Of a stretch of 64,000 nucleotides of DNA, positions 3,335 through 53,142 are shown piece by piece (the first letter of the stretch is position 1; the number at the start of each line of letters is the position of its first letter). The notes under the pieces are model-generated. The model saw nothing but the letters and a program-made list of their open reading frames with translations, was not told where the DNA came from and searched no databases. Origin of the DNA: Bacillota bacterium. GTDB taxonomy: Bacteria > Bacillota > Clostridia > Christensenellales > WQRI01. The stretch spans positions 15,266 to 79,265 of the forward strand of contig WQRI01000001.1 in the NCBI GenBank assembly GCA_009786825.1, in the 5' to 3' direction. A program made the translations under genes and the position numbers.

Positions 3335-3484
3335 ATTGAACACTGAATATTGAACAATGGCTTAGCCCCTTAATACAGAAACTTTTGAACAGCCAGAATT
3401 TAAATTTCAATGCAGTTTGCAAATAAACTTTGCTCGCGCTAGCGTGTAACAATTGTTCAGTATTCAATGTTAAGTGTTCAATTA
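3335..3484. repeat. intergenic hairpin element (core family), ATTGAACA arm flavour
   Basis: The arms ATTGAACACTGAATATTGAACAATGG and CAATTGTTCAGTATTCAATGTTAAGTGTTCAAT are inverted. The core holds TTGAACAGCC ... TTTGCAAA ... TTGCTCGCGCTAGCGTGTAAC. Confidence 0.75.
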
Positions 3485-6400
3485 TCAAACTGCATTTGCT
3501 AGTGCCAAAACAACTTGGTTAAATTCGTCGTCTGATAGCATTTGCAACTCTTTTCTTTGTCTGCCTTTAAAGTTATCTACTATGCGCAGTATATTATCTT
3601 GCGCTTCGAGTTCGTACCTGCCACTTGTAGACTTTACTAGCCTGCTTGTTGCTTTGTTTATAATTGTGTTAAGGCGCGCTGGTGATATTTGTTTGTCTAG
3701 CGCACCATTTTTAAGCGCCTTGTAAAGTTGCGCTGTAATCTCGCCATCTTTAGCAATTTGGTCTGATTCTGCCTTTATCTCGGCTAGCCTATCCGACGTC
3801 TTTTTAGCATCTGCAATTTGTTGCTTAAGCGACTCTACATCTAGTTTTGCTTGTATAATCTCGTCCGTTGTAGCCGTAATATTATACACAAGCCTATCTA
3901 ACTCTTTGCTCTCAATCGCTTTGCCGCGCTTGTTAGGCTTAAGGCTGTCTAACTTAGACTTAACAACCGCCGTCTCAATTTTGTGGCTTTCTATATCTTT
4001 GTTAAGCGCCCTAAGTTCTGCTTGCGATATTATAAAATCTTGTATGCTTTCTATATCCTCAAAGCCCTCGTCCTTTGCCCTTGTTTCTATCTCGCTCTCT
4101 AGCGCTATTAACTCGGCTTCTTTACGCGCTAGGTCTGCCGTGTTAAGCCTTAGTTTTTCGGCTTCTTTCAAGTATGCGTTTTCTGCCTTTGCCCTATCAT
4201 CTTTAAGTTTATTTTCTTTCTCGCTGTTTTTGGTTAGCGTATTTGTTATTGTGATTATCTCTGCGTGTGGTTGTTTGCCCATTATGCCTAGGTTGCGCTT
4301 AAGCACCTGAATCTCATCTATAACAGCCGCCGCTTGCTCGCCGTGCTTTTTTATGTTAGCAAGCTCTAACGCACACTCTGATATGTGGTTGTCGTTTTTA
4401 GCAATATCCAAAAGCAGTTTAGCCCTTAAATCTTCTTGCTCTTTTATTTTGGCTTCTATATCGAAGCGCTGACGCTCAGACTTCTTTATAAGAATATCTG
4501 CATCTTTAGCCGTGCCACCACCAAGCGCATCTGCATACTTATAATACTGCATATTAATCTGCGCGATGTCTGCGTTAAGTTGGCGCGATATTGTAGAGTT
4601 TGTGAATAACTCTTTATTTAAACTGTCTAGTTTTGTCCAGCGCTCTAGGTGGTTTTTCTCGTTTATATGAAGTTCGTTTTTAAGCGCAACGTAAGATGCC
4701 ACAAGGCTTTCTAGTTTTTCTACGCGCTCTGAATACATCTTAAGCGCTTCGTACATCTGCTCTGTATCGCCACCAATGTGCGACCACTTTGTAAGTAGGT
4801 TGTCGCGCTCTAATTCTTTTGCGCTTATAAGCGTTAGGTTGTTGTCTATTTGCCTTTTGTTTTCTTCAGAGCGCGCGGTAAGGGACGCAAACTTCTTTAT
4901 TGCGGCTTCTTTCTTGTGCTGAGTTTGTGATATTTGCGTGCGTAAGTCTTGCAACTCGCTGTCAAACGCTTCAAGCGGTATCATATGCTGTCTTACCGGA
5001 TTTTTTTGAAGCATAGTGCTACACACGGGACAACTATCGCCCTCGTTTAAATTTGCTGTGCGTATAGCAAAAGAATTTTTCTGTAAATAGTCTTCGCGCT
5101 GCATCAACTTAAAGGTAAGTTGTTCTTCTAGCCTTGCTATTGCCGAAGTTGCCGCTTTGTCTTCATCTAACATATCTAGTATTGTGTTAGAGCGCATATC
5201 TATTTTTTCTAGAAGTTTTTCGTTTTGCGAAGTTGTTAGTGCAATTGCATCATTTAGTATTTTAACTGTTGCAATTGCTTTTTCCATTTCGTAAGCCTCT
5301 TTTTGAGCGTTGGTTAATACTATGTGGCGGTCTGCTTTTTCATCTATGTCGTAGAGTTTTTCTATGGCGCTGTCTACGCGGGACAGGTCTGCTTCTATGC
5401 GCTTTACAACTGTTTTAATGGTGTCTATCTCTCTTGTTAGAGAGTTTCTCTGAGCGCCGCGCTTTACATCTTGCGCCTCTATTGCTTTTAGTTGAGCCTC
5501 TAAGTTGTCGCGCTTAATCTCTAACTCCCAAGCCCTTTTAATAGCCTCCATTATCTGCGGTGAGACAACAACCCTATTGTGCGCCGACCTAAGTTCTTTT
5601 AAATAGCGCTCTGACGCGTCTTTAAGTCGTCCGTACTCTGCACGGTTTTTTAACAGCCTTTCGTACTCGGCTTCTTTGTTAGCAAAATCTTTCAGTAAGT
5701 CTTGTCGCCTTTTTAAGTTTATTGCTTCTACTTCTAGGCGCGGAATAAAGTTTTGTATGTGCGCTTTTCTCTCAATTAACTCTATGCTAGTTTGTTTAAG
5801 TTGAGCCTCTCTTTCTAATATTGCTTCGTTTGCTTCTTCCAAGTTTTTTAGCAGTCCATCAAGTTTACTGCCCGCCTCGCTTGATGCTAGCCTATCTTTT
5901 AGCACAGCCCCGCGTAGTTTTTGTAGCCTTTTGCTTAGCGGTGTTAAACTTAAAGCAGCCCTTGCAAGTTTCAGTTTGTCTTCTTTGTCTGTAATATACT
6001 GCCCTTCGTACTCTAATTCTACTTGCCTTTGCGTTAGAATGTCGTAGTTTTCTGTATCTAGCAAAAAACTATTTGCTTTGGTTTTTTCTAAGTCTGCTAA
6101 TTTGCCTTTAAGCGTGCTAACTTCTTTCTCTCTCTCTTTTAGACCACGCTCTAGCGTCCCAATATTTAAAATAGAAAAAGCAGACAAAGCCTTCATCTCA
6201 CCCTCTAACATTGCCTTTTCTGTTTCTTTTTTTAGCATTTTGTCTAGCACATCTGCGCTAAACTCTGACGCGGTTATATTTAGTAGCGTAGCAAGCGTAA
6301 GGCTATCTGCGCCCGCACTCGCACCGATGTTCGCCCCGATATTCGCTTTGTTGTCCGCCCTGTTTTTTTCCCCTACAATGTTTTCTTTACTTTGAACTTT

Positions 6401-7213
6401 CATTTTGTTTGCCTCACCCATTGTATTTACTAGGCTAATATAATTTTTTGTATTGTTTTGTTTGTTTTGTTGGCTCGCTGTAGCATTCTGAGCGTTTTGC
6501 TGTTGCTCTATCTGTTGCCCCTGTGCTTGCTCTATTTGTTGCCCTAACTGTGTTTGTTGCTCTGAGATTGCTTTGTCGTGGTTTTCTTTAATCTCGCTCA
6601 TTCTTTTTTGAAGTTGCTCTAGCGTTGTGTTTTGCTTGCTTTGCACTTCGTTTTGCTGTTCGCTCTGTTGCTCGTTTTGCTGTAGCCCTTGTTGCCCCGC
6701 TTGTTGTCCCCCGTGATGTCCGCCTTGCTGTTCGCTTTGCTGTATGCCTTGTTGCCCCAATTGCTGTGTGCTTTTTTGCCTTTCTTCGTTTATATAATTT
6801 TTAAACTGCTCTCTCGTTTTTCCCAAAACATTTTTTATATACTGGCTTACAAGGCTAGAAGTATTTGCAAGCATAATTCTGCCGTTTTGTTTAATCTCAA
6901 AAAGTTCTGCCCCATACAGCTCGTTTGCCTTTGTTTCGTTTTTCTTTGCCCTGAATATTCGCTCTACCAAAAATGTATATTTGGGTTGCATATGTTGGTC
7001 TGTAACCGAAAAAGTAAAACTAACCCTTGCCGTTTTAGAGCCAGCCTTTACCAAAGTATCTACATCTATCTCGGGCTTCAAGCCATAAAGCGCAAGTTCT
7101 ACACAATTTATAATGCCTTGCGAGAATTCTACAATTCCGCCGTCTCCAAACTCTATTACTTGCTTGCCCTCAAAGCCCACAAGCCCATCTGTTTCTAACC
7201 TCAAACTTCTCAT
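3485..7213 (-). CDS. SbcC/Rad50-like long coiled-coil protein with a CxxC zinc hook and a degenerate ATPase head
   Basis: The N-terminus MRSLRLETDGLVGFEGKQVIEF..GIVEFSQGIINCVELALYG aligns to the SbcC head, but the GPxGxGKT Walker A is missing. A central DSCPVCST hook is flanked by about 1000 aa of heptad-like sequence. The C-terminus ends at LSDDEFNQVVLALANAV (signature-like), with no Walker B or H-loop. There is a Gln-rich tract near the N-terminus. Confidence 0.65.
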   Translation of the reverse strand: MRSLRLETDGLVGFEGKQVIEFGDGGIVEFSQGIINCVELALYGLKPEIDVDTLVKAGSKTARVSFTFSVTDQHMQPKYTFLVERIFRAKKNETKANELYGAELFEIKQNGRIMLANTSSLVSQYIKNVLGKTREQFKNYINEERQKSTQQLGQQGIQQSEQQGGHHGGQQAGQQGLQQNEQQSEQQNEVQSKQNTTLEQLQKRMSEIKENHDKAISEQQTQLGQQIEQAQGQQIEQQQNAQNATASQQNKQNNTKNYISLVNTMGEANKMKVQSKENIVGEKNRADNKANIGANIGASAGADSLTLATLLNITASEFSADVLDKMLKKETEKAMLEGEMKALSAFSILNIGTLERGLKEREKEVSTLKGKLADLEKTKANSFLLDTENYDILTQRQVELEYEGQYITDKEDKLKLARAALSLTPLSKRLQKLRGAVLKDRLASSEAGSKLDGLLKNLEEANEAILEREAQLKQTSIELIERKAHIQNFIPRLEVEAINLKRRQDLLKDFANKEAEYERLLKNRAEYGRLKDASERYLKELRSAHNRVVVSPQIMEAIKRAWELEIKRDNLEAQLKAIEAQDVKRGAQRNSLTREIDTIKTVVKRIEADLSRVDSAIEKLYDIDEKADRHIVLTNAQKEAYEMEKAIATVKILNDAIALTTSQNEKLLEKIDMRSNTILDMLDEDKAATSAIARLEEQLTFKLMQREDYLQKNSFAIRTANLNEGDSCPVCSTMLQKNPVRQHMIPLEAFDSELQDLRTQISQTQHKKEAAIKKFASLTARSEENKRQIDNNLTLISAKELERDNLLTKWSHIGGDTEQMYEALKMYSERVEKLESLVASYVALKNELHINEKNHLERWTKLDSLNKELFTNSTISRQLNADIAQINMQYYKYADALGGGTAKDADILIKKSERQRFDIEAKIKEQEDLRAKLLLDIAKNDNHISECALELANIKKHGEQAAAVIDEIQVLKRNLGIMGKQPHAEIITITNTLTKNSEKENKLKDDRAKAENAYLKEAEKLRLNTADLARKEAELIALESEIETRAKDEGFEDIESIQDFIISQAELRALNKDIESHKIETAVVKSKLDSLKPNKRGKAIESKELDRLVYNITATTDEIIQAKLDVESLKQQIADAKKTSDRLAEIKAESDQIAKDGEITAQLYKALKNGALDKQISPARLNTIINKATSRLVKSTSGRYELEAQDNILRIVDNFKGRQRKELQMLSDDEFNQVVLALANAV

Positions 7214-7350
7214 TCGACACTCGCCGTGTCGGGCTGTTAAGTTTGCTTAGCCCGACTATTTATGTTTTCTGTTCCGTGACATAGTTGATTTTTTTCTATG
7301 TATTTATACATTATACATTAAACCAAAAAAAAAATCAAGCAAACAACCAA

Positions 7351-7386: not shown

Positions 7387-7518
7387 GTTTTGTCTTTTTA
7401 AAACTCTTTGCTAATTTTCGCTTCGCTAGACCCTTCACTTCGTTCAGGGTGACTACTTAAAATCTTTTACCGCACAAGCGGTCGTAACCATTTAACATTT
7501 AAAACTTAACATTTAAAA

Positions 7519-8244
7519 TTAATAATTCGTATTAATTCTAATATTCGACATTATCCTTAGGTTGTCTATTACAAGTGTTGGTTGAGTTGGTTGTTCTATT
7601 ACTGGTGGTAAGTAGCCCTCACCGTACCCTACAAACTCGCGCGGTTGCGGTGTTATATACGGCTGAGTAATTGGCATACCATCTATTCGCCCGCCGATGT
7701 CTTGCACTTGTTGCGCCATATCTATCATCTGATGTTGAAGCACGCTTACGCTTTCTTGCAACTGTGCTATGTCATTCATCATTGTGTTTATTACGCTTGC
7801 AGACACCCCGTTTTCTACAGAGTTTTCTATTGCCCTTTCTATAACAAGCATTCTGCTCTCTAGTCCCCTTAAATGATATATCTCTTCAGCAGACAAGCCT
7901 TGCCCCGCCGGACCCGCCGGTCCTTGTGGACCCTGCAAGCCTTGAGCGCCCTGTGGCCCTTGCGGACCTTGCGCGCCAGTAGCCCCGTCCGCACCTATTG
8001 CACGCCTACCAGTATTTTGGTCACCAAACCACCAATAGCCCCTATCACAAATGTGCGGCGTTATGCCGTCTGTAACCTGCCCTAAAGTACGCAGCGCCGC
8101 ATCTATTGCGTTTATTCTGTCTAGCAAATATTGCGGACCAACAAGACCCGGACCTATAGTAGACCCACCCTCTATAGTTTGCATCTCGTACTTGTTCATT
8201 TCGCCGCCACTTATTGGCACTATTAAACTTTTTTCGTTATTCAT
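7519..8244 (-). CDS. double-glycine-leader protein with a collagen-like GXY tract and a coiled-coil C-terminal region
   Basis: Leader MNNEKSLIVPISGGEMNKYEMQTIEGG|S. There are 11 GXY triplets (GADGATGAQGPQGPQGAQGLQGPQGPAGPAGQG, nt 7897-7995), preceded by GYWWFGDQNTG. The SD is AAAGGGGA. Confidence 0.8.
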   Translation of the reverse strand: MNNEKSLIVPISGGEMNKYEMQTIEGGSTIGPGLVGPQYLLDRINAIDAALRTLGQVTDGITPHICDRGYWWFGDQNTGRRAIGADGATGAQGPQGPQGAQGLQGPQGPAGPAGQGLSAEEIYHLRGLESRMLVIERAIENSVENGVSASVINTMMNDIAQLQESVSVLQHQMIDMAQQVQDIGGRIDGMPITQPYITPQPREFVGYGEGYLPPVIEQPTQPTLVIDNLRIMSNIRINTNY

Positions 8245-8315
8245 AGCCTAATCCCCTTTATAGTTATTTGTTATTTTTCTGATTTATTACTTAACAAGCT
8301 TATCCGTTGTAGCCG

Positions 8316-9695: not shown

Positions 9696-9710
9696 ATTAA
9701 CCCCTTTTTT

Positions 9711-9897
9711 AAAATTACAAATTACAGTGTACAAATTACAAATATTTAACTCATTATTACCGCAACATTTGAACATCTCAGCGTTAGAAATTTTTATTAG
9801 TTTTATTATGTTAAATTATCAATTTGTAACTGTTCAAGCGCTTGGCATTTAGTGAGTTCAACATTTGTACATTGTAATTTGTTATTTGTTATTTGTT
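9711..9897. repeat. intergenic hairpin element, TGTACAAATTACAA arm flavour
   Basis: Left arm AAAATTACAAATTACAGTGTACAAATTACAAAT; right arm ACATTTGTACATTGTAATTTGTTATTTGTTATTTG. The interior contains ACTGTTCAAGCGCTTGGCA (core 2). Confidence 0.7.
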
Positions 9898-10340: not shown

Positions 10341-10430
10341 GTAAATGTTCAATTTTAAATTTTCAATGTTAAATTATTGCGCGCTAGCGATGAAACCATT
10401 AAACATTTAACATTTACAATTTAACATTTT
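10341..10430. repeat. intergenic hairpin element (short form), TAAATGTTAAAT arm flavour
   Basis: GTAAATGTTCAATTTTAAATTTTCAATGTTAAATT - ATTGCGCGCTAGCGATGAAACC - ATTAAACATTTAACATTTACAATTTAACATTTT. Confidence 0.75.
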
Positions 10431-10436
10431 AAGACT

Positions 10437-15722: not shown

Positions 15723-15814
15723 ACATTTAGTATTAACCGCCCGCCTAGTTATTATACGCAGAGCGCGCGCTACTACTACATTATATGCAAAACCACGAAC
15801 AAAGGCAATGTGCT

Positions 15815-15982
15815 AATGTTAAATTTTAAATGTTAAATGTTGAATGATTTCACCCGCTGTCGCGGAAAAAGCAAAACGAAAATTATATGCAAACAGCCCG
15901 CAATTATTACTGCGGGCTGTTCAAACGTTGTATCGTTAATGAATTAAACCATTAAAAATTTACCATTTAACATTTAACATTA
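15815..15982. repeat. intergenic hairpin element, TAAATGTTAAAT flavour, variant core
   Basis: Arms AATGTTAAATTTTAAATGTTAAATGTTGAATG and CCATTAAAAATTTACCATTTAACATTTAACATTA. The core holds TTTCACCCGCTGTCGCGG and a CAGCCCGCA..TGCGGGCTG hairpin, followed by TTCAAACG. Confidence 0.75.
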
Positions 15983-15986
15983 GATA

Positions 15987-18161: not shown

Positions 18162-18174
18162 TGCGCCCTCCTTT

Positions 18175-18311
18175 TTAATGTTAAATTTTTAATTTTAAAT
18201 GTTTAATGGCTTTGCCCGCTTAAAGCGGTATAGGTTGATTTGCCAACCACTTCACTAAAACGCTTGTGTCAGCCTGCAAACATTTAAAATTTAACATTTA
18301 AAATTTAAAAT
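18175..18311. repeat. intergenic hairpin element, TAAATGTTAAAT flavour, variant core
   Basis: Arms TTAATGTTAAATTTTTAATTTTAAATGTTTAATGG and CAAACATTTAAAATTTAACATTTAAAATTTAAAATT. The core is GCCCGCTTAAAGCGG. Confidence 0.75.
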
Positions 18312-18316
18312 TGGTC

Positions 18317-19864: not shown

Positions 19865-20012
19865 TAATGTTAAATTTTAAATGCTAAATGTTAAATGGTT
19901 AAACACATTGAATGCTTTACTTTTGAGCAGTTGTAGTTGCTTGTTTACGCAACTTGCAAAACAAATATTGCCCGCGCTAGCGGTGAAACCATTTAAAATT
20001 TAAAATTTAACA
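19865..20012. repeat. intergenic hairpin element, TAAATGTTAAAT flavour, canonical core (inverted orientation)
   Basis: The core is ...TTGCAAAACAAATATTGCCCGCGCTAGCGGTGAAACC. The arms are TAATGTTAAATTTTAAATGCTAAATGTTAAATGG and CCATTTAAAATTTAAAATTTAACATTA. Confidence 0.8.
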
Positions 20013-21551
20013 TTAATTCCCGTATCCCGTGAAGCACGCTGTGCAGAATTTTCTTGTGCTGAACCTACACGCGTATAGCAAGCCTTCTAGGCTGATGTAG
20101 GCTAGCGTGTCTGCGCCTACGCTGTCTCTAATTTTTTGAATGGCTTTTTTGTTCTCTTCGCTTTTTATATTTCGTGCCAAATCGCTTGTTAAGCCCACTT
20201 TGTTTGCAATTAGGTTTTCTTCATTATCTATATCTGTGCCGAAATGGCAAGTGTATAAAAACGGCGGACTAGATATTCTAAGGTGAACCTCTTTTGCGCC
20301 TGCGTCTTTAAGCGCCCTTACTATCTTTTTGCTTGTTGTCCCCCTAACAATACTGTCATCTACAAGTATAACGCTTTTGCCTTTAACATTCATACTAACA
20401 GGGTTTAGTTTAAGCCTTACAATGCTCTCCCTTTGGCTTTGCGTTGGGTATATAAAACTTCTGCCTAGATATCTGTTTTTAACAAATCCACTCACAAGCG
20501 GTATGCCGCTTTCTAAACTGTAGCCATAAGCCGCATCTAGCCCACTATCTGGCACGCCGCAAACTATATCGGGCTTAACCTTAGCATCTAACTCTATGTT
20601 CTCTCTTGCCAAAGTCTTACCCATAGATACGCGCGCCCTATGCACGCTTTGATTGTCTACAATACTGTCGCCACGCGAAAAATAAACATACTCGAAAATG
20701 CATAGCCCAAAGCGCTTGCTACTGCCCTCTGCTTTAAGTTTTATTTTTTCGTATACAATCTGCCCGCTCTCTACAACCACAATCTCGCCCGGCAACACAT
20801 CGCGCTCTGGCTTAAAGCCCGTGCTGTCTAAAGCACAACTCTCAGAAGCCACCGCAATACCGCTCTCGTTCCTGCCTATAATAAGTGGTCTGAACCCTTG
20901 TGGGTCTCTTACAATAATCATTTTGCCACAGCCCGTTGCTATAACCAAACAAAAAGCCCCCTCTAGCAACTTACACGCTTTTGCTATACCGCCAACAATT
21001 GCCTTTAGTTGTAACTCGTCACCACCCTTATACCTAGAGTGCATTACATCTTTAAAGTTGCCCGTTCTGCCCTTTGTTATAACAAGTTTTTCTTGCTCGC
21101 GCGACACGAAGTAGGCAACAAGGCTTGCTATAACTTCGCTGTCTGTTGTTGCCCTAAAGGTTATGCCATAACTTTTAAGTTGCTCTTTAACTTCTGAGGC
21201 GTTTGTAACATTGCCGTTATGAGAAAGCGCGATTCTGCCCGTTAGATACTCTTTCAAAAACGGACCAACATTTTCTTTTACGTTGCCACCCGTTGTAGAA
21301 TATCTGTTATGACCAACAGCAACCCTGCCGCGCGGCATACCCGCAAGTTTGTGGGACAGCGCCTCGCCAACAAGCCCAACATCTTTTCTTATGGCTATGC
21401 GGTTGTCGTAAACAACGGCTATTCCTGCGCCTTCTTGCCCCCTGTGTTGCAACGCTAAAAGCCCGTTGTACGTTACGCCAACAGCATCATCACTAGAAAG
21501 CGAAACCCCAAACACCCCGCACTCTTCTTTTAGTTTATCTAAAAACATCAT
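20013..21551 (-). CDS. purF: amidophosphoribosyltransferase
   Basis: A propeptide followed by CGVFGV, and a PRTase fold (VILVDDSIVRGTT). Confidence 0.93.
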   Translation of the reverse strand: MMFLDKLKEECGVFGVSLSSDDAVGVTYNGLLALQHRGQEGAGIAVVYDNRIAIRKDVGLVGEALSHKLAGMPRGRVAVGHNRYSTTGGNVKENVGPFLKEYLTGRIALSHNGNVTNASEVKEQLKSYGITFRATTDSEVIASLVAYFVSREQEKLVITKGRTGNFKDVMHSRYKGGDELQLKAIVGGIAKACKLLEGAFCLVIATGCGKMIIVRDPQGFRPLIIGRNESGIAVASESCALDSTGFKPERDVLPGEIVVVESGQIVYEKIKLKAEGSSKRFGLCIFEYVYFSRGDSIVDNQSVHRARVSMGKTLARENIELDAKVKPDIVCGVPDSGLDAAYGYSLESGIPLVSGFVKNRYLGRSFIYPTQSQRESIVRLKLNPVSMNVKGKSVILVDDSIVRGTTSKKIVRALKDAGAKEVHLRISSPPFLYTCHFGTDIDNEENLIANKVGLTSDLARNIKSEENKKAIQKIRDSVGADTLAYISLEGLLYACRFSTRKFCTACFTGYGN

Positions 21552-23019: not shown

Positions 23020-23036
23020 ATTATTTACTCCTTTTT

Positions 23037-23200
23037 AGTGTAGAGTGTAAAGTTTAAAGTGTAAAGTTGTTTCACCGCTAGCGCGGGCAATATTGCATTT
23101 TGCAAACTCTGAGTAAATAACAAATTTCAGGCTGTTCAAACGCTTTGCATTTAATGTACTTAACCACTCTACACTTTACACTTTACATTTTACACTAGTG
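23037..23200. repeat. intergenic hairpin element, GTAAAGTGTAAAG flavour, canonical core
   Basis: AGTGTAGAGTGTAAAGTTTAAAGTGTAAAGT - GTTTCACCGCTAGCGCGGGCAATATT ... GGCTGTTCAAACGCTTTGCA - CCACTCTACACTTTACACTTTACATTTTACACT. Confidence 0.85.
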
Positions 23201-25480: not shown

Positions 25481-26053
25481 AATTCTTTAATATTGTAAAG
25501 TGTAAAATGTAAAGTGTAAAGTAGTTAAACTAATTAAACGCTATACTTTTCAACAGTCTGCATTTGTTGTTTCACGCAGTTTGTATATTTAAAATTTTGT
25601 CTCGGTGTCGCACAACTAAATTTCGCACTAAAGCGGTTGCTCGCTATACAAACCGCCGCTTTGATATAATTTCTTGCAAACAAAAAAAGTATCCTTCCTT
25701 TTTGATGTTCTAAGCAAGTGTGTGCTTCGCCGAAGGGCTATCTCGCCGCCCCTGTCTTTTTGGGTTGCAACACATATATTTAATTGCTAAAAACATTTTA
25801 AAGGTTTGATACTTCCTTCAGTAAACTTATTTAAGGCAGACACCTGCGCTTCACGCTTCACTTGAAATCTTTGCATAAGGTTTAGTCTACGCCTGCTCCG
25901 CAAAACCACCCTAACAAAAATAATTCAAGCCCTACCTCTGAGTATTTATTATACCACATTTAAAACAATAATGCAACTGTTTTACATAAATTTCTACACT
26001 TCCCGCCAAATTACCCACCGCACAAACTACTTCTCTCTGCACATCTAGCCCTA

Positions 26054-33760: not shown

Positions 33761-34163
33761 TTAGTTTTTCCCTCCTTAAATAAATTTGTTTTTTAATGAT
33801 TAGGTTTCACCTAATCAGCGGTCAGGTTTCAGCGTTCAGGGATGAGGTTTTGGGGTTTTGTAACCTTTGGCTCATCGCTGGTTGCTGTTTGCTGGTCGCT
33901 GAATTTGGCGTTCCCGCCGAATTCGACGGGGTGGTTATTTTTGCCTTGTGGGCTTTTTTATGTAACCCACAAGGGCTACTGGTTTGTTGTTGTATAAATG
34001 TTTACTGGTATTTAGGTTATTGCCACAAATTTGTGCTTTTATAACTATTGCCCCGAATATGCACAAAGTTTTTTGTACATACACAAAGTCTTACTTTTTT
34101 AGCAACTAAAAAAGGGCAGACCTGTATCAGTATACAACTATACAGTAACATTTTACATTAAAA

Positions 34164-37207: not shown

Positions 37208-39223
37208 TTAAGACGCTTCCTCTGAGAACTGGCTTTGGTGCAGGCGGGCGTAGTAGCCACCTTTTGCTAGAAGTTGGTTATGGTTGCCTTGTTCTACAAT
37301 GTCGCCGTTGTTTACTACTAGTATTATGTCGGCACTTCTGATTGTGCTTAGGCGGTGGGCAATTACAAATGATGTTCTGCCGCGGGATAGGCTTTGCAGG
37401 GCTTGTTTTATGCTGACTTCTGTGCGCGTGTCTACGCTTGATGTTGCTTCATCTAGTATTATGATTGCGGGGTTGGCTAAAAACACCCTTGCTATTGTAA
37501 GAAGTTGTTTTTGACCGGCAGAGATGTTTGTTGCATCTTCGTTTAGTATTGTGTTGTAGCCATCTGGCATTTTTTCTATGAAGTAGTGGGCTTGGGCTTT
37601 TGTTGCGGCTTTTATAATTTCTTCGTCTGTTGCATCTTCTTTGCCGTAGGCTATGTTGTCGCGTATGCTTCCGTTGAACAGCCACGTGTCTTGCAAAACC
37701 ATACCGAAGCACTTGCGAAGTGTGTAGTGGTCTAGCGTTGAGATGTCTGTGCCATCTAGCGTTATTTTACCGCTGTTAATCTCGTAAAAGCGCATAAGCA
37801 AGTTTACGATTGTGGTTTTGCCAGCACCCGTTGGTCCGACAATTGCTATGGTCTGACCCGCTTTTGCCGTTAGGTTCATATTGTTTATTATAATTTTTTC
37901 TGGCTCGTAGCCGAATGTTACGTTGTTGAATTCTATGTCGCCTTTTATACTTGAGGGTTCAGCGAACAGCGATGAGCGATGAGGTTTTTGGGTTTCTTTA
38001 TTAATTGCGGTCTCCGTTTCAATCTGACCGCTGGTCGCTTCCCGCTGGTCGCTCTTATACTGTTCGCTGGTCGCTGACCGCTGGTCGCTGACAACGTCCG
38101 CTATCTCTTCTTCATCTAGTATCTCAAACACGCGCTCGGCGCTTGCTATTGTGCTTTGTATTACGCCGATTATTTGTGCGGCTTGCGAAATTGGCATTCC
38201 TAGCGTGCGTACGTACTGTACAGACGCTTGAATATCACCCGCGCTTATTCTGCCCGCGCGCAAGTGTATTGCGCCCACAACAACTACAAGCACGTATGTC
38301 ACGTTGGATAAAAAGCGCATAAGGGGCATTATAAGGGCTGTTAAAAACTGGGCGCGCTTGGACGCATCGTATAAGTCTGCGTTTATATTATCGAATTGCT
38401 CTATCGCTTTTTGCTCGTACGAGAATGCTTTTACTACTGTGTGAGAGCCGTACATCTCTTCTATGTGTGCGTTGATTTGACCCGTGTGCATTGCGCTTCG
38501 CTTGAATTGTTTTTGGCTACGCTTTGCTATAAAAGCGGTTGCTAAAAGGGAGATGGGTATGCTTCCAACAACAATTAGCGCAAGCAACCAATGAATTGTA
38601 AACATCATTATTACAGAGCCTACAACTTGTATTACTGCAGAAATTACTTGCAGTAGGGTTTGTTGAAGCGTTGTGCTTATTGTGTCTATGTCGTTGGTCA
38701 TTCGGCTTAGGGTTTCGCCGTAACTGTTTTTGTCGTAGAATTTTAGCGGGACGCGGTCTAGTTTTTGCTTCATCTCGCGGCGCATTCTGAATACTATGCG
38801 CTGAGCCACGCCCGATATTAAAAAAGAGGCGATGTACGATATTATAGAACTTGATGTGTAGAGTATGCCCGCAATTACTAGTAGGCGCACAACGTTTTGT
38901 AGGGTTGATAGCCCTTCCGCCATTAAGAATATATTTGTGGTTGCCTCGCCTGAGATGCGCGGACCAACTATCCAAACGCCCGTGCCGACTATTGTTATAA
39001 AAATTACAAAAGCCAATAGATAAGCCTCGCGCCCCATATATGTTGTGAGACGGCGGAATGTGCCTTTAAAATCTTTTGCCTTTTGCGCAAAGCCCATACC
39101 CGCACGACCAAAGCCCCTAGGTTGCGCTTGCCCCGCCTTTTGTTGCTGGCGGACAAGGTCTAGGTCTTTTTGGTCTTGAGTGTTTTCAGGTTTGCCCTGC
39201 TTGTTGTTTTTATTTTTGCTCAT
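37208..39223 (-). CDS. ABC exporter, fused permease/ATPase (heterodimer partner 2) with an element-derived insertion in the TMD-NBD linker
   Basis: Six-TM exporter fold. Walker A GPTGAGKTT, signature ISAGQKQ, Walker B IIILDEATS. There is no N-terminal C39 peptidase domain. Confidence 0.88.
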   Translation of the reverse strand: MSKNKNNKQGKPENTQDQKDLDLVRQQQKAGQAQPRGFGRAGMGFAQKAKDFKGTFRRLTTYMGREAYLLAFVIFITIVGTGVWIVGPRISGEATTNIFLMAEGLSTLQNVVRLLVIAGILYTSSSIISYIASFLISGVAQRIVFRMRREMKQKLDRVPLKFYDKNSYGETLSRMTNDIDTISTTLQQTLLQVISAVIQVVGSVIMMFTIHWLLALIVVGSIPISLLATAFIAKRSQKQFKRSAMHTGQINAHIEEMYGSHTVVKAFSYEQKAIEQFDNINADLYDASKRAQFLTALIMPLMRFLSNVTYVLVVVVGAIHLRAGRISAGDIQASVQYVRTLGMPISQAAQIIGVIQSTIASAERVFEILDEEEIADVVSDQRSATSEQYKSDQREATSGQIETETAINKETQKPHRSSLFAEPSSIKGDIEFNNVTFGYEPEKIIINNMNLTAKAGQTIAIVGPTGAGKTTIVNLLMRFYEINSGKITLDGTDISTLDHYTLRKCFGMVLQDTWLFNGSIRDNIAYGKEDATDEEIIKAATKAQAHYFIEKMPDGYNTILNEDATNISAGQKQLLTIARVFLANPAIIILDEATSSVDTRTEVSIKQALQSLSRGRTSFVIAHRLSTIRSADIILVVNNGDIVEQGNHNQLLAKGGYYARLHQSQFSEEAS
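37955..38100. repeat. intergenic-type repeat element read through in frame inside the ABC exporter gene
   Basis: GGGTTCAGCGAACAGCGATGAGCGATGAGGTTTTTGGGTT...CTGACCGCTGGTCGCT...CTGTTCGCTGGTCGCTGACCGCTGGTCGCTGAC. The same words occur as in the intergenic copies at 33810-33900, 34230-34380 and 34750-34877 (e.g. GAGCGAACAGCGATGAGTTTTTGGCTT). Confidence 0.75.
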
Positions 39224-39237: not shown

Positions 39238-39394
39238 AATGTACAAATTACAATGTACAATGTACAAATGTTTCACCGCTAGCGCGGGCAATATTTTGCG
39301 TTTGCAAATGCTCTAAAAATCATAACGCAGACTGTTCAAACGCTTTGCAATTAACGAATTTAACATTTGTAATTTGTACACTGTAATTTGTAAT
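39238..39394. repeat. intergenic hairpin element, TGTACAAATTACAA flavour, canonical core
   Basis: AATGTACAAATTACAATGTACAATGTACAAAT - GTTTCACCGCTAGCGCGGGCAATATT ... GACTGTTCAAACGCTTTGCA - ACATTTGTAATTTGTACACTGTAATTTGTAATTT. Confidence 0.85.
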
Positions 39395-39398
39395 TTGG

Positions 39399-41155: not shown

Positions 41156-41216
41156 ATTAATTATGAATTCGGAATTATGAATTATGAATTGTTGCACACT
41201 AGCGCGGGCAAAGTTT
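41156..41216. repeat. half hairpin element, ATTATGAATT flavour
   Basis: ATTAATTATGAATTCGGAATTATGAATTATGAATT - GTTGCACACTAGCGCGGGCAAAGTTT. No matching right arm was seen. Confidence 0.6.
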
Positions 41217-41435
41217 GTTTTGGTCTACTTTATGTAGTTTTGGTTTCACGTGATTGCTTTTGGTTTCCTTAAATAATTTGATTTCTCTTAATTTTATCAC
41301 ATAACCCGCCGTAAGTCAATAATTTGACACTAAAATAATATGCCAAATTGCTTGACTAAATTGTGAAAATATTGTAAACTATTATGTAGGGGGTATACAA
41401 ATTTTTTCGCCTGCCATACTGTCAATGCTCTTGCA

Positions 41436-42366: not shown

Positions 42367-42497
42367 AATGGTAAATGTTAAATTGTTTCACCGCTAGCGC
42401 TGGCAATTTGATTGAAGTTGGAAAACGCAGACTGTTCAAAGGCAATATATATAATTGTGCTTCGCCATTAAAAATTTAAAATTTACCATTAAACATT
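42367..42497. repeat. intergenic hairpin element, TAAATGTTAAAT flavour, canonical core
   Basis: AATGGTAAATGTTAAATT - GTTTCACCGCTAGCGCTGGCAATTTG ... GACTGTTCAAAGGC - CCATTAAAAATTTAAAATTTACCATTAAACATT. Confidence 0.8.
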
Positions 42498-42525
42498 AAA
42501 AAAAGTGGCAATGCCACTTTTTTTA
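42498..42525. terminator. bidirectional terminator between cvpA and potD
   Basis: AAAAAAGTGGC-AAT-GCCACTTTTTT. Confidence 0.75.
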
Positions 42526-48080: not shown

Positions 48081-48335
48081 ACACCTTACCCCACCCTGTT
48101 TGTTTAAAAAAGCGCGTATTATAAAAATTTATGCACTAAGGTAAACTTGCCGTGCGCTAGCACATAGCCCTACCAACAAGCAATTCAACCTTAGTGTCTT
48201 TTATCCGCAAGTTTAGTATTACTAAACTCGAAAACATTATTAATTATAGAACATTATAAAAAATTTGTCAACTGTTTTGACAAAAATTTTTTATTTGGGT
48301 GCTTATTTTTTTGTGTGGTTACATACATATAGAGT

Positions 48336-48611: not shown

Positions 48612-48633
48612 AAAATTATTTAGATAATTTTTT

Positions 48634-48771
48634 TAGTGTAAAGTGTAGAGTGGTTAAACTCATTAAATACAAAGCGTTTGAACGGCTCAAAAAAAGTTCT
48701 GGTTAATTTTGCCCGCGCTAGCGGTGTAAACACTTTACACTTTACACTTTACACTCTACACTTTACACTCT
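48634..48771. repeat. intergenic hairpin element, GTAAAGTGTAAAG flavour, canonical core (inverted)
   Basis: TTAGTGTAAAGTGTAGAGTGG ... GCGTTTGAACGGC ... TTTTGCCCGCGCTAGCGGTGTAAAC - ACTTTACACTTTACACTTTACACTCTACACTTTACACTC. Confidence 0.85.
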
Positions 48772-48773
48772 CT

Positions 48774-49124
48774 ATGTCTCAATTTATCCCCTTCACAATC
48801 TGTATTGGGCTTGGCTTTGTAGTTGGCATAATTTATGTGCTTATTACAAGTGTTGCCACCCTAACAAAAAAAAGGTTTGTATATATTTTTACAGACCTAA
48901 TTTTCTTTTTATTTTTGGCGGGTGTGGTTGTTTTTTCAATTTATTTTGTCTCACTCGGGCAACCGCGGTGGTATTTGTTTTTGGGGCTAGCGACCGGGCT
49001 TGTGGCTCAGCACGTAACGCTTGGCGGTGTTTTAGGGCGGTTAGTTACTAAAATTTCTGCGCGAAAAAAGAAGCCTAAGCAACCACCTAAAAAGTTAAGT
49101 CAACAGACCCAAGGTGAACTCTAG
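48774..49124 (+). CDS. yabQ: spore cortex biosynthesis protein YabQ-like membrane protein
   Basis: It follows yabP, has about 4 TM helices and a basic tail. Start moved to MSQFIPF; the upstream part of the track ORF is the hairpin element. Confidence 0.65.
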   Translation: MSQFIPFTICIGLGFVVGIIYVLITSVATLTKKRFVYIFTDLIFFLFLAGVVVFSIYFVSLGQPRWYLFLGLATGLVAQHVTLGGVLGRLVTKISARKKKPKQPPKKLSQQTQGEL

Positions 49125-50630: not shown

Positions 50631-50759
50631 TTTTTTCTCTGTTTTTCGTGTACGTAAACGAATGCTTTACGCTCTATTTAATTTTTTTGTTATTTTTAGT
50701 CTTTTTGCAACATTTGTGATTTGTACATTGTAATTTGTAATTTAAACTAGCCTAGCGCT

Positions 50760-51536
50760 TTAAGCATTAACCTTAGCATCTGACCGCGCCCTTAATTTTT
50801 GCGGTAGCACAATCATAACCAGCACACCTAAAACCGGCACAAGCATAAACACAAAGTATAGTATTGCCGTTTTAGCAAATGGGTGTACATCGTGTATAAA
50901 TGGCAAGTTAAGCGGGAAGTCTAAAAACCTTGCAAAGTCTGCATTAAGCAAATGAGCCATTACTGCCGATATAAGCAGTAGGGAAGCGTAAATTATAAAC
51001 ACCCACTTTATGTCTCTGTTGTTTGGCGCGTACGGCTTAAGCGCAATTGCTAGCATAAAAAACAGCACTTTTATAAGGTGATAGATTGTGGTGTGGTGGT
51101 TGTAAAAAGAGCCTTGCGCGGTGAATATGTACGTGAACGAATCGGCAACAATTGCAACGGGCGCAACATAAAGCGCAAGCCCCGCAACAAACTGAATACT
51201 TAAAGAAGAGGCAAAGCCAATTTGCGATACGCGGCTATCAGGCTTTGCAAATGTGGCTAGCGCAAATGTAAGCATTGCGTAACTTGATATATGAAAGGGC
51301 AGGTGGCGCAAGTTAAAGTCTGAGCCGTAAATTATAAGTAGTCTGCTGATTTTGATAATCTCAAAAATTATCATAAAAATTGTGATAATCAAAAATGGCA
51401 GGTTGCGCATTCGCCCTTTTTTATTAGAAAAGCCCTTGTAACACGCAAGCGTTATTACAAGAAAAACGATTGTAAAAGTAAACAGCCAAAGCACATCGTA
51501 AGCCGAGTGCGCTATTGTAACACCACGATTTTCCAT
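50760..51536 (-). CDS. multi-pass membrane protein (YwaF/TIGR02206-like guess)
   Basis: Seven or eight hydrophobic helices and an LPFHISS motif. Start moved to MENRGV. Confidence 0.45.
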   Translation of the reverse strand: MENRGVTIAHSAYDVLWLFTFTIVFLVITLACYKGFSNKKGRMRNLPFLIITIFMIIFEIIKISRLLIIYGSDFNLRHLPFHISSYAMLTFALATFAKPDSRVSQIGFASSLSIQFVAGLALYVAPVAIVADSFTYIFTAQGSFYNHHTTIYHLIKVLFFMLAIALKPYAPNNRDIKWVFIIYASLLLISAVMAHLLNADFARFLDFPLNLPFIHDVHPFAKTAILYFVFMLVPVLGVLVMIVLPQKLRARSDAKVNA

Positions 51537-51728
51537 TGCCCTACAATTATAACAAAAACCGCACAACTTGTAAAGCGTTTTTAAGGCAATAAGGCAAGTA
51601 GGGGTATGGGGGTAAAGGTGTAGGTGGCTAAAAAGGGGCAAGCGTTTTTGTGTTTGGTCGGTTGGGTGCTTGGTTGGTTGGGTGCTTGGTAGCGCGCTTG
51701 TTTAAAAATCCCACCGCTACGGCTGCCA

Positions 51729-51748
51729 ATAGTTATTATGATAACTAT
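51729..51748. promoter_or_regulatory. 20-bp palindrome ATAGTTAT-N4-ATAACTAT upstream of parB
   Basis: ATAGTTATTATGATAACTAT. The same half-sites occur at 53146-53165. Confidence 0.4.
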
Positions 51749-51815
51749 CAGCGTGGGTTTGCAAAATTTTTGGTTTTTAGTTGCTTTTGTACCTGTTTTG
51801 TGCTACAATAAATTT

Positions 51816-52898
51816 ATGAGTAAAAACAGAGGATTGGGCAGGGGGCTAGGTAGCCTTTTTGCCAACACACAAGAAGAATACGAAACACAACTAGAGCAGG
51901 CGAGAGACGACCTATCAAGTGACACGCTTGCTACTATAACTGGGGTATCTCAAACTAAGTCCGGGGGCAATAATAAGGCTAAGTCTAAGGCAGGTACGGG
52001 GGCAGGCGCAAATAATTTGGCTAGCCACTCAAACACCGCAAGTGGTACTACACCCTTAGCATCGGCACACCAAAATGTTTCACGTGAAACATTGGCTGGT
52101 GGCACTAATAATACAAGCGGGGTACAGCAAATATCGCTAAGTTTAATACGCGCAAACAAAAATCAGCCACGCAAAACCTTTAATGATGAGAGGCTGGAAG
52201 AGTTAGCATCATCTATAAAAACTCACGGCGTTATCCAACCCATTTTAGTGCAAAAGAAAGGCGCGGGCTTTGAGATTATAGCGGGTGAGCGACGCTTTAG
52301 GGCTGCGCAATTAACAGAACTAGACTATATCCCTGTAATTGTGCAAAACCTAGAGGCTCAAAGCGCAAAGGAAGTTGCGCTTATAGAAAACCTACAGCGC
52401 GAAGACCTTAACGCTATAGATTCAGCCCTTGCAATACAGTCGCTAATGCAAGAGTTTAGCCTAACACAAGAGACAATCGCAAAAAGAATAGGCAAATCGC
52501 GCCCGGCAGTCGCAAACTTGCTTAGGCTTTTGGGTTTGCCCAAGTTTGTAATGCAGTCGGTTAGAGACGGCACTTTGTCGGCTGGTCACGCAAGAAGCCT
52601 TGCATCTATTTCTGACAGCCAAGCGCAAGTGCGCCTTGCAAAAAAGGCAATAGAGGGCGAGTGGTCTGTGCGCGCGCTAGAGCAAGCGGTTAAAAATTAT
52701 CTAGAGCCGAAGCCAAAAACAAAGGACACGCTAAAACCACCAAAGTCTAAAGAACTTGCAAACCTTGTAAACAACCTAAAGCGCACGCTCTCAACAAAAG
52801 TCTATGCGCTAGGCACAGAAAATAAAGGCAAAATAATAATTGAATACTACAGCACAGACGACCTTGAGAGAATAGAGCAGTTTATGACTGGTAAGTAG
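51816..52898 (+). CDS. parB: chromosome partitioning protein ParB/Spo0J with an N-terminal low-complexity insertion
   Basis: MSKNRGLGRGLGSLF, the QPRK..FNDERLEELASSIKTHGVIQPILV box, GERRFRAA and an HTH (LTQETIAKRIGKSRPAVANLLRLL). The candidate promoter TTGCTT-17-TACAAT ends 6 nt before the ATG. Confidence 0.9.
   Translation: MSKNRGLGRGLGSLFANTQEEYETQLEQARDDLSSDTLATITGVSQTKSGGNNKAKSKAGTGAGANNLASHSNTASGTTPLASAHQNVSRETLAGGTNNTSGVQQISLSLIRANKNQPRKTFNDERLEELASSIKTHGVIQPILVQKKGAGFEIIAGERRFRAAQLTELDYIPVIVQNLEAQSAKEVALIENLQREDLNAIDSALAIQSLMQEFSLTQETIAKRIGKSRPAVANLLRLLGLPKFVMQSVRDGTLSAGHARSLASISDSQAQVRLAKKAIEGEWSVRALEQAVKNYLEPKPKTKDTLKPPKSKELANLVNNLKRTLSTKVYALGTENKGKIIIEYYSTDDLERIEQFMTGK
52076..52091. 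promoter_or_regulatory. parS site (perfect) inside parB
   Basis: TGTTTCACGTGAAACA matches the Firmicute parS consensus TGTTNCACGTGAAACA. Confidence 0.85.
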
Positions 52899-52940
52899 GT
52901 CTGCTCGCACTAACTCAAAGCCTGCTCGCGCCAACTCGCA

Positions 52941-52963
52941 AAGAAGCCCGAAAGGGCTTTTTT
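52941..52963 (+). terminator. rho-independent terminator of parB
   Basis: AAGAAGCCCG-AAA-GGGCTTTTTTT. Confidence 0.75.
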
Positions 52964-52979
52964 TGTTTCACGTGAAACA
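52964..52979. promoter_or_regulatory. parS site (perfect) immediately downstream of parB
   Basis: TGTTTCACGTGAAACA. Confidence 0.85.
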
Positions 52980-52985
52980 ATGTTT

Positions 52986-53142
52986 GATTTTAAATGTTAA
53001 ATTTTAAATGTTAAATGGCTGCACCGCTAGCGCGGGCAAAGTTTATCTGCAAGTTATTAAAAGGCGCAACTACAAACCGTTCAACACCAAATGAAATAAT
53101 GAGTTTAACCATTTAACATTTAAAATTTAGCATTCAACATTT
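52986..53142. repeat. intergenic hairpin element, TAAATGTTAAAT flavour, canonical core
   Basis: GATTTTAAATGTTAAATTTTAAATGTTAAATGG - CTGCACCGCTAGCGCGGGCAAAGTTT ... ACCGTTCAAC - CCATTTAACATTTAAAATTTAGCATTCAACATTT. Confidence 0.85.

Follow-up and report, generated by a model that had tools for sequence, protein, structure and literature searches.

The Correia elements of Neisseria (CREE/NEMIS) are 100 to 155 nt long, combine inverted repeats with a conserved core, and occur by the hundreds at intergenic positions near genes, where they are cotranscribed as hairpins (PMC2649163; reviewed in PMC2229807). Here, we describe a family of intergenic hairpin elements in a 64,000-nt stretch of DNA from a Bacillota bacterium (contig WQRI01000001.1; referred to as the window), in which a conserved interior of about 95 nt is enclosed by two arms, each a tandem array of heptamers, and in which the heptamers come in several sequence versions, or flavors. 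In anatomy and density, this family is closest to the Correia elements; for the arms, the closest described sequences are the GGGAATC arrays of Xanthomonas. Length, inverted repeats with a conserved core, and intergenic placement are shared with Correia elements, and the density is comparable (one copy per approximately 5 to 6 kb in the window alone). CREE have a single conserved 26-bp terminal inverted repeat (TIR), a TA target duplication, and an IHF site, whereas the TIRs described here consist of five heptamers in at least five flavors, no duplication was detected, and the host belongs to another phylum. No sequence similarity between the two was detected either, in a comparison made via the Rfam library alone. 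The original prediction, made from the window sequence by a model, had called the arrangement the inverse of REP/MITE logic; its arms do vary around a constant core, but the phrase is too strong, because Correia elements likewise have inverted repeats and a conserved core (PMC2649163).

In Xanthomonas, arrays of the heptamer GGGAATC (Rehm et al. 2015) form 70 to 75 inverted (convergent) pairs per genome, which are potential stem-loops (PMC4692102). They lie mostly between codirectional open reading frames (ORFs), on either strand, and rarely between divergent ORFs; they are transcribed, and their function is not known (PMC4692102). These arrays are G-rich and have been studied as G-quadruplex formers, and one heptamer dominates per genome (PMC4692102). 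Our elements resemble them in having intergenic tandem heptamers in inverted pairs, with a preferred number of five units here and four there. Unlike the Xanthomonas arrays, those in the window are AT-rich, come in several flavors, and enclose a conserved interior that bears a mini-hairpin; no such ~95-nt core is described for Xanthomonas. Heptanucleotide tandem repeats are also found in the cyanobacteria Calothrix and Nostoc (PMC4692102), and the TAACTGA repeats of Beggiatoaceae are further intergenic heptamer arrays (PMC4679880). With the Xanthomonas and cyanobacterial types, the present family shares the tandem intergenic 7-nt units and does not share their occurrence as free-standing variable arrays without a core. 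The cyanobacterial heptanucleotide repeats are called STRR.

REP and REPIN sequences, which are mobilized by RAYT, are high-copy, extragenic, hairpin-forming, nonautonomous, and lineage persistent and leave no target duplication (PMC3116915, PMC3337134). As in these sequences, conservation in the elements described here, which are extragenic and show no target duplication, is highest in a small GC hairpin. The REP unit, however, is an imperfect palindrome of 20 to 40 nt, and a REPIN is built from two such palindromes, inverted, around a less conserved spacer, whereas here a single 4-bp mini-hairpin stands in a conserved interior and heptamer arrays form the arms. A RAYT gene, which would encode a Y1 HUH transposase, is absent from the Pfam results for the window, the only part of the genome searched for it, and no conserved 5′ tetranucleotide of the GTAG type was identified in the element. 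The ERIC/IRU sequences of enterobacteria are imperfect palindromes of ~127 nt, transcribed and intergenic, which occur in either orientation and affect mRNA stability; in contrast to the elements in the window, they form a single sequence family, belong to another clade, and have no tandem-repeat arms. The foldback (FB) transposons of Drosophila carry long TIRs made of short tandem repeats with units of 10 to 31 bp, the number of which varies among copies; being eukaryotic and far larger, they provide an architectural analogy only. Rickettsia palindromic elements insert in frame into ORFs, and a second, GC-rich family in our window resembles them in that one copy lies in frame within a gene, whereas the main family is never found in genes. 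Elements of the Rickettsia type are named in PMC10969869, and a 2024 review of prokaryotic MITEs makes no mention of tandem-repeat, heptamer, or foldback termini.

What distinguishes the present family is the combination of a ~95-nt interior that is conserved and holds a covarying mini-hairpin, arms built from five heptamers, several flavors on the same interior, and a very high density. It is apparently undescribed and represents an unusual variant among the small bacterial intergenic repeats. We consider it somewhat probable that the family is a lineage-specific, high-copy, nonautonomous foldback repeat of the MITE/Correia/ERIC kind that forms hairpins in operon transcripts.

RESULTS

Recurrence of the element family

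The proteins encoded in the window were found exactly on a 187-kb contig of ENA metagenome assembly ERZ27257340, in JGI 3300002450, and in one Logan assembly. The three versions are identical across whole elements, and all independent assemblies are 100% alike. A 22-nt core pattern matched 25 loci among JGI metagenome contigs. Three are chance matches of high GC content; the other 22 are genuine elements, spread over nine long contigs from a single metagenome (Ga0209755 / JGI24695J34938). Because this sample also holds the window sequence at 100% identity, its element loci outside the window are other parts of the same genome or population. The JGI loci were picked for holding a copy, while the window was not. 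Loci and contigs compared with the window are given L numbers (e.g., L028), and W marks window positions.

Eleven instances of the exact core sequence CGCTAGCG were counted in the window, where 1.3 would be expected, and eight of these lie in elements. Core 1 (20 nt, written CACCGCTAGCGCGGGCAA) gave six window matches with at most one mismatch against 0 expected; core 2 gave four matches with at most two mismatches against 0.12 expected, at approximately 60 nt from core 1, within the 50 to 70 nt that had been proposed. These core matches beat every shuffle. A covariance model (CM; model R1, trained on 36 copies) identified 10 solid copies in the window (E < 1e-3) and three weak ones. In a census of 221,764 nt of nonredundant sequence, made up of the window plus nine further contigs from this population, the CM found 53 copies, and the expectation that the cores would recur elsewhere in the genome was thus borne out. 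The E values of the CM reach 1e-16 to 1e-18.

A repeat finder independently located inverted arms of 24 to 40 nt, 83 to 92% complementary and spaced by 30 to 126 nt, at 3335, 9712, 10351, 15813, 18172, 19865, 23036, 39242, 48635, and 52987. When 11 window copies were folded as RNA and compared with dinucleotide shuffles, nine had z scores of −3.0 to −8.2; the remaining two (10341 and 42367), both internally deleted, had a z score of −1.1. The fold scores and the repeat-finder arms indicate that the arms are self-complementary beyond what AT richness provides, as the original prediction had anticipated. Reading of the gaps placed an element or a remnant at each of the 12 loci and three arm-only sites that it had named. 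Two of the latter (7489 and 50712) are indeed solo arms, but 25494 is a decayed one-armed copy with a CM match (51.1 bits).

Could these elements be a chance low-complexity pattern of AT-rich spacers or an artifact of assembly? The spacers are AT rich, the arms are of low complexity, and short-read contigs break within the arms: the Logan contigs L050 (window 18283 to 19894) and L054 (window 7492 to 9739) both stop inside them, so that the repeat breaks up short-read assemblies at its arms. This reading is already refuted by core matches above every shuffle, by the CM E values, by fold z scores down to −8, and by the identity of the ENA, JGI, and Logan versions. The element family is real and statistically secure.

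Anatomy of the interior

The elements are 146 to 176 nt long, typically about 155 nt, and consist of a 35-nt left arm of five heptamers, the ~95-nt interior, and a right arm that is the reverse complement of the left. An oriented copy reads left arm, GGTTTCA-CCGC TAGC GCGG-GCAA(A/T)ATT..TTTGCAAATTGCG..(variable)..ACAAAATGCAGACTGTTCAAAAG..GCATTTAATGAGTTTAACC, right arm. By reading of the sequence, the interior contains no ORF. It opens with a 4-bp GC mini-hairpin (CCGC-loop-GCGG) followed by GCAA. In an alignment of 32 copies chosen independently of the search pattern, the best-conserved blocks are the mini-hairpin, the block CTGTTCAA.AG, and the two junctions, with free linkers in between. Conservation covers the whole ~95-nt interior and not only the two cores originally singled out.

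The RNAalifold consensus of the interior consists of the 4-bp CCGC/GCGG hairpin alone. This mini-hairpin is paired at 96.6% across 53 copies, in an alignment fitted to the model, such that the figure leans towards pairing. Double changes occur at three of its four pairs (e.g., ACGC/GCGT at L045:1211 and CCTAC/GTAGG at L044:5027), and its loop may be TAGC, TGTC, TTGC, TTTAC, TTAGC, or TTTAA. Because the stem compensates and the loop varies, the exact CGCTAGCG is incidental, and the feature that is kept is a small hairpin followed by GCAA. A sigma-54 reading of GGGCAA-N-TTGCA was dropped by eye, as the spacing differs among copies.

Anatomy of the arms

The arms are strict 7-nt tandem arrays. 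Tandem Repeats Finder (TRF) reported period 7 as dominant, with 145 arrays in 229 kb, about 100 of which flank a CM match. Exactly five units are present in 75 of 97 arms (77%) and six in 11, while a few arms range from three units to eight and above. On the outside, the element ends in A(G/A)TGT; the inner junction is likewise defined, and the innermost and outermost heptamers are characteristic; in the AAAGTGT flavor, for example, the innermost unit is often AGAGTGG on the right versus AAAGTGG on the left. In register, the main flavors are AAAGTGT/AGAGTGT, TAAATGT/TAAATTT, ACAATGT/ACAAATT, ACAATGA/ACATTGA, and ATAATGA/ATATTGA, with AATTATG and GTTGAGA as rarer units, and adjacent flavors lie one or two substitutions apart per unit. 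The fixed length, defined termini, and characteristic inner units indicate that the arms are copied along with the element, like terminal inverted repeats. The flavor counts originally given for the window (6, 3, 3, 1, and 1) are correct. The arms had also been described as locus specific, and this description does not hold: there are at least five discrete flavors, each common to many loci, with a fixed length and defined ends.

Both arms are of the same flavor in 44 of 47 typable copies, against approximately 15 expected if they were independent, in line with the predicted pairing of arms at each locus and their divergence from one locus to the next. Between copies, covariation is seen at the nine arm-proximal base pairs (67 double-change cells versus 27 in shuffled alignments, a value reached in 0 of 500 shuffles), and sliding the partner by 1 to 3 columns lowers arm-proximal pairing from 89% to between 34 and 47%. 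Over the arms as a whole, complementarity is 83.8% in register, 84% one heptamer off, and 76% two heptamers off, and variant units are not mirrored in the opposite arm. Because pairing is independent of register and variants are unmirrored, the arms are two arrays of the same heptamer rather than products of compensatory point mutation; the proposed complementarity within loci thus holds for the arms as matched arrays and not base by base. In three hybrid copies (L044:5770, L027:358, and L024:4665), the arms do not match and do not pair, which indicates that a copy can persist without paired arms. Expansion of one arm alone is seen at L033:13832 (at least nine left units), L037 (at least 10 right units), and L029:446 (six right units).

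Flavor is nearly uncoupled from the interior. The mean interior distance is 0.369 within and 0.390 between flavors (P = 0.03), and the nearest neighbor is of the same flavor for 17 of 44 copies versus 13.8 by chance. Consensus interiors built by flavor agree across all conserved blocks, and L033:13832 and L029:3986 differ by 10% in the interior yet carry different arms. Flavors are thus subfamilies only in part. As far as sequence comparison can tell, the pattern fits a propagation that would hold the interior constant while the arms change in concert, and it also fits an exchange of interiors between copies via the conserved blocks at both ends.

Genomic context

No copy lies inside a gene. 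Forty-four copies occupy gaps between codirectional (tandem) genes, six lie in convergent gaps, and one, a truncated copy, lies in a divergent gap. Counted by gap, copies are present in 46 of 145 tandem, 4 of 15 convergent, and 1 of 17 divergent gaps, figures that include nonwindow loci picked for their copies. The repeat takes approximately 3% of the genome and one third of operon spacers. Relative to transcription, 22 copies have the same and 22 the opposite orientation, and the prediction that both orientations occur is correct. Integron attC sites carry R''/L''-L'/R' boxes and have a uniform orientation relative to the ORFs of accessory-gene cassettes, with an intI gene nearby. They were rejected as an identity on account of this 22:22 split, the housekeeping genes in the flanks, and the lack of a Pfam integrase among the window genes.

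A Shine-Dalgarno (SD)-like motif begins 0 to 15 nt past the arm in 15 of 37 copies in tandem context, with the element filling the gap; this agrees with the predicted closeness to SD sequences and stop codons. Housekeeping genes such as purA, purB, purF, guaA, glnN, and proS make up the flanks. Along the pur string, copies are found in the purB-purA, purF-guaA, and guaA-glnN gaps and in the gap downstream of glnN (before a DAGK-domain gene), and upstream of purC there is a decayed one. The elements had been said to separate nearly every gene of this string; four gaps do hold copies, but the purC-purB gap (45 nt) is empty, and the purA-purF gap (21640 to 21725) holds a different repeat. That repeat is a hairpin of about 80 nt, 94.6% identical to L030 6189 to 6262.

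At four loci from distant relatives (40 kb; 62 to 69% GuaA identity), no CM match and no period-7 array were found, and the gaps between the pur genes are 10 to 57 nt long. Because these gaps are so short, an element inserted into such an operon spacer would of itself end up close against stop codons and SD sequences. P0002/L048 was at one point taken for a close relative (890 bits); it is 62 to 70% identical, an internal duplication inflates its score, and it is a distant relative only.

Dispersal, decay, and database searches

Two pairs of copies are highly similar between unrelated flanks: W39238 to 39396 and L028 3818 to 3974 are 88% identical over 159 nt, and W19866 to 20014 and L038 4010 to 4161 are 86% identical. 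Whole units, arms included, have thus been copied to many unrelated intergenic sites. Decayed forms include internal deletions (10341, 42367, and 48634), one-armed or truncated copies (25494, 41159, L033:7858, and L038:3099), and solo arms (7489 and 50712). At L045 5665 to 6010, a main-family copy of 345 nt contains an unrelated insert of approximately 215 nt in its interior, and the flavors at its two ends differ. Set beside the general features of MITEs, the family has the size (<300 bp), the noncoding nature, the TIRs (35 nt, ~84% complementary), and the dispersal between unrelated flanks, and lacks a detectable duplication. The individual window copies are listed in Table 1.

An Rfam scan of the window at gathering thresholds returned two tRNAs only, with no match to the element, and an Rfam E-value scan of 18100 to 23300 returned nothing up to E = 5. 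Plasmids, viral contigs, and a literature search by sequence string likewise gave no match to the element. A match to a described REP or MITE family, the identity that the original prediction had named as fatal to its claim, was thus found in none of these sources. Representative genomes with an 18-nt core proved to hold chance matches in high-GC genomes, in a set to which the source species does not belong; the sole match in a low-GC genome (L017) sits in coding sequence.

Table 1. Copies and remnants of the heptamer-armed element in the window, with two hairpins of the second, GC-rich family. Bits and E values are from the CM; z, RNA fold z score against dinucleotide shuffles.
Feature	Positions	Strand	Evidence and remarks
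Full copy, ACAATGA/ACATTGA	3328..3483	-	CM 3351-3456, 83.8 bits; arms 3335-3359 and 3458-3482; z = -3.0; flanked by the stop codon (3485) of the 1242-aa gene and the SD of ProRS
Solo arm remnant, TAAATGT	7489..7522		TRF period 7, 4.6 copies; sequence; AACC inner junction kept
Diverged copy, ACAATGT/ACAAATT	9712..9897	+	CM 9762-9871, E = 8e-4; core 1 decayed, core 2 kept; arms 9712-9736 and 9863-9887, 92% complementary; z = -4.5
Short copy, TAAATGT	10341..10432	-	Weak CM, E = 0.21; arms and core 1 only, internal deletion; arms 10351-10374 and 10405-10428; CGCTAGCG at 10382
Full copy, TAAATGT	15813..15983	+	CM 49.3 bits; arms 38 nt, 87% complementary; z = -8.0; mini-hairpin loop TGTC; extra GC-rich terminator-like hairpin at 15890-15923
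Rearranged variant, TAAATGT-type arms	18172..18312	-	No CM match; arms 40 nt, 83% complementary; z = -3.4; on the minus strand, core-2-like block, then core-1-like hairpin (CCGC-TTTAA-GCGG)
Full copy, TAAATGT, purF-guaA gap	19865..20015	-	Best window CM match, 105.2 bits; z = -5.3
Full copy, AAAGTGT, purB-purA gap	23036..23197	+	CM 101.9 bits; arms 36 nt, 86% complementary; identical in independent JGI contig L022
Decayed one-armed copy, AAAGTGT, upstream of purC	25494..25622	-	CM 51.1 bits; one arm typable
Second-family hairpin, CAGCGAN units	33800..33905		Sequence
Second-family hairpin in ABC-transporter ORF 37208-39223	37953..38095		TRF period 7, 8.7 copies at 38029-38090
Full copy, ACAATGT/ACAAATT, between two ABC-transporter genes	39238..39397	+	CM 96.9 bits; z = -8.2
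Truncated copy, AATTATG, left arm and core 1	41159..41283	+	TRF period 7; weak CM, E = 0.53; no matching right arm found within the window
Internally deleted copy, TAAATGT	42367..42506	+	CM 57.4 bits; z = -1.1
Internally deleted copy, AAAGTGT, between yabP and yabQ	48634..48770	-	CM 79.4 bits; z = -6.1; Pfam YabP, YabQ
Solo arm remnant, ACAATGT/ACAAATT	50712..50743		TRF period 7, 4.6 copies; sequence; AACATTTGT junction kept
Full copy, TAAATGT, abuts parS-like palindrome after parB	52979..53142	+	CM 87 bits; arms 32 nt, 91% complementary; z = -5.1

DISCUSSION

Dispersal between unrelated flanks, the range of decayed and recombined forms, and restriction to one lineage speak for a repeat that is, or once was, mobile. 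If the family is a nonautonomous foldback repeat, as we favor, its arms would gain or lose heptamers now and then by replication slippage, copies would decay through internal deletion, and recombination via the conserved interior would give rise to hybrids, solo arms, and rearranged copies. Because at least five flavors sit on one interior, whatever propagates or maintains the repeat probably reads the interior (mini-hairpin, core 2, and junctions), the arms serving just as matched arrays. Located inside operons, the copies are presumably transcribed, and the transcripts would fold into imperfect AU-rich stems of up to approximately 35 bp closed by a loop of ~95 nt. Such stems are plausible substrates for RNase III or stabilizers of 3′ ends and could uncouple the expression of neighboring operon genes, with ERIC and REP elements as one analogy for the processing or stabilizing of hairpins. 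Correia elements provide another, as their hairpins can be bound, cleaved, or protected by RNase III and their ends can create promoters (PMC2649163). In a promoter scan of 15 to 26 kb, a few weak outward promoter-like matches were seen in the arms (TTTACA-17-TACACT and TTAACA-16-TAACAT); a terminator scan of the same region found no canonical terminators at the elements, save the extra hairpin of the copy at 15813. Processing of the hairpins, if it takes place, would reshape how core operons such as the purine cluster are expressed.

Several results weigh against this interpretation. A target-site duplication was not detected by the flank-match test (direct-repeat match, 3.24 nt versus 3.14 ± 0.16 nt in mismatched controls), which does not strictly exclude a duplication of 1 to 2 nt, and a TA duplication is unsupported, with T preceding the terminal A in 47% of arms only. 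Pfam analysis of the called genes, limited to the window, returned no transposase, integrase, or Y1/HUH protein, and no longer parent element with the same arms was seen. The copies are 12 to 57% from the consensus (mean, ~25%), with no young copies among them; pairs less than 6% apart lie 0.6 to 1.3 kb from each other and may be local duplications. The assemblies, all 100% identical, offer no empty site or presence-absence polymorphism for comparison; the paralogous small-gene array at 8.3 to 13.8 kb was considered as a source of empty sites and rejected, its paralogs (30 to 47% identical) being too diverged. None of 65 variable interior columns is associated with flavor at P < 0.01, where classical subfamilies would be expected to have some. 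That last result also supports the predicted contrast between variable arms and a constant core, with the correction that the variation is among a few common flavors. Finally, G·U exceeds A·C on the mRNA strand by only 58 to 44 (P = 0.2), with no RNA-specific signal, and since this excess is not significant, nothing points to selection on the RNA over the DNA form.

The last point bears on the idea that the element is instead a host-selected cis-acting RNA module for processing, stability, or translational coupling, whose interior binds a host RNA-binding protein or nuclease. Conservation is uneven at a mean divergence of ~25%, the mini-hairpin, core 2, junctions, and arm pairing being kept while the linkers are free; placement between stop codon and SD sequence is tight and within essential operons; and about one third of tandem gaps are occupied. 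An exactly random orientation (22:22), however, would make the interior two different RNAs, G·U is not significantly more frequent than A·C on the mRNA strand, three copies with nonpairing arms and many truncated ones persist, and the pur clusters of distant relatives have gaps of 10 to 57 nt without the element. We regard such a module as unlikely, though worth keeping in view, and as compatible with a foldback repeat, because selfish repeats can be co-opted. It is quite doubtful that only a core with short inverted ends moves or is duplicated while the arms grow and homogenize in place by slippage and hairpin-templated strand switching, which would make arm identity a local product, as the original prediction implied. 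Expansion of some arms on one side alone, pairing that is independent of register, the uncoupling of flavor from the interior, and the second GC-rich heptamer-arm family in the same genome would all follow naturally from growth in place, and heptamers are reported to be in excess among the simple repeats of many bacterial genomes, for which polymerase slippage has been proposed (Mrazek 2007, as cited in PMC4692102). Yet arms grown in this manner would hardly have exactly five units in 77% of cases, a few discrete flavors at many loci each, or defined termini and inner junctions with innermost units that differ between right and left (AGAGTGG versus AAAGTGG), and whole elements are 86 to 88% identical at unrelated loci.

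A DNA-level role, in which a protein of the nucleoid, of segregation, or of DNA topology would bind the heptamer arrays and the palindromic core (compare gyrase or IHF at BIMEs, or ParB spreading from half-sites), appears very improbable to us. Orientation independence is what a site in duplex DNA would show, and (T)GTTTCAC at the inner junction equals one half-site of parS (palindrome TGTTTCACGTGAAACA), with a complete parS-like site beside the copy at 52979; but a half-parS match of 7 to 8 nt is within chance in AT-rich spacers, heptamers that differ by flavor make a single sequence-specific binder unlikely, and the maintenance of mini-hairpin pairing while loop and stem bases change points to a folded single strand rather than a duplex palindrome. 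A folded single strand is also the premise of a more speculative idea, to which we give little credence: a structure-specified replicator, the machinery of which would read the loop (GC mini-hairpin with GCAA, and core 2) on a folded single strand, with the arms merely matching arrays of five 7-nt units. Under this scheme, arm flavors would drift or switch in concert by array homogenization and hairpin-templated copying while the interior stays fixed. If true, the usual arrangement, in which a transposase recognizes termini, would be reversed; an HUH-type single-strand DNA enzyme or an RNA-templated route would be implicated; and the GC-rich heptamer-hairpin family would be another client of the same process.

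As a foldback repeat with interchangeable arms, the family offers a system in which to ask how inverted repeats are kept matched, as it splits the requirement for sequence from that for structure. It also connects the MITE and REP literature with that on intergenic heptamer repeats, whose excess in bacteria is unexplained.

OTHER REPEATS AND GENES OF THE WINDOW

A second family consists of looser hairpins with GC-rich heptamer arms (CAGCGAN/GAGGGAT) and short, loosely conserved loops (GAGTTTTTGGG..). Among the related word sets of the original prediction, GGTCGCTGA/CAGCGATGAG correspond to these GC-rich heptamers, but the word CGTACGTAAACGAATGC was found without periodic structure. Besides the two hairpins in Table 1, window copies lie at ~8811 (8811 to 8831), 34248, 34759, and 35545, the last three within the 33800 to 35580 region; further copies outside the window are at L024 2445 to 2601, L026 2929, L042 1467, and L044 1206 and 2869. 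The hairpin within the ABC-transporter ORF is in frame and encodes ..SDQRSATSEQYKSDQREATSG.., a 30-aa insertion in the membrane-ATPase linker relative to the adjacent paralog. Some main-family copies with ATAATGA arms are bordered by GC-rich heptamer arrays. Because this second family exists and borders some main-family copies, heptamer-array hairpins are a wider habit of the genome.

Since the heptamers contain ATG, gene callers run ORFs into the arms. ProRS is called from 3336, where a GTG at 3312 with an SD sequence is the more likely start, and similar miscalls affect a 152-aa ORF (9318 to 9776) and yabQ, called from 48678 with a more likely ATG near 48775.

Two other repeats were seen. 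A GC-rich repeat of ~170 nt that looks structured occurs in three copies (41455 to 41625, L027 5550 to 5722, and L027 6980 to 7156) that are 86% identical; the window copy lies upstream of cvpA, and the repeat has no Rfam match even at E = 10. Direct repeats of 123 nt (26785 to 26907 and 28172 to 28294; 94% identical) flank a DUF1016/YhcG-family gene (26961 to 28061), which suggests that this gene and its repeats form a small inserted cassette.

Eleven consecutive small genes on the minus strand (7519 to 13790) encode proteins of 110 to 241 aa without a Pfam match that have a common N-terminal leader of the form ..L(V/I)LPxxGxE..(M/L)QY(I/V)EGG(S). From its sequence, this leader looks like a double-glycine secretion leader. 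The run is adjoined downstream on the minus strand by a gene (3485 to 7213) for a 1242-aa protein without a Pfam match.

YabP, YabQ, ParB, and the switch in gene strand near 50 to 52 kb fit a spore-forming Firmicute. Around 48000 to 53000, the cumulative GC skew reaches its minimum and the gene strand changes from minus to plus, and parB, parS, and two tRNAs lie close by; in view of these features, the window probably takes in the region of the replication origin. A perfect parS-type palindrome occupies 52964 to 52979. It follows the stop codon of parB by 65 nt, and the element at 52979 adjoins it directly.

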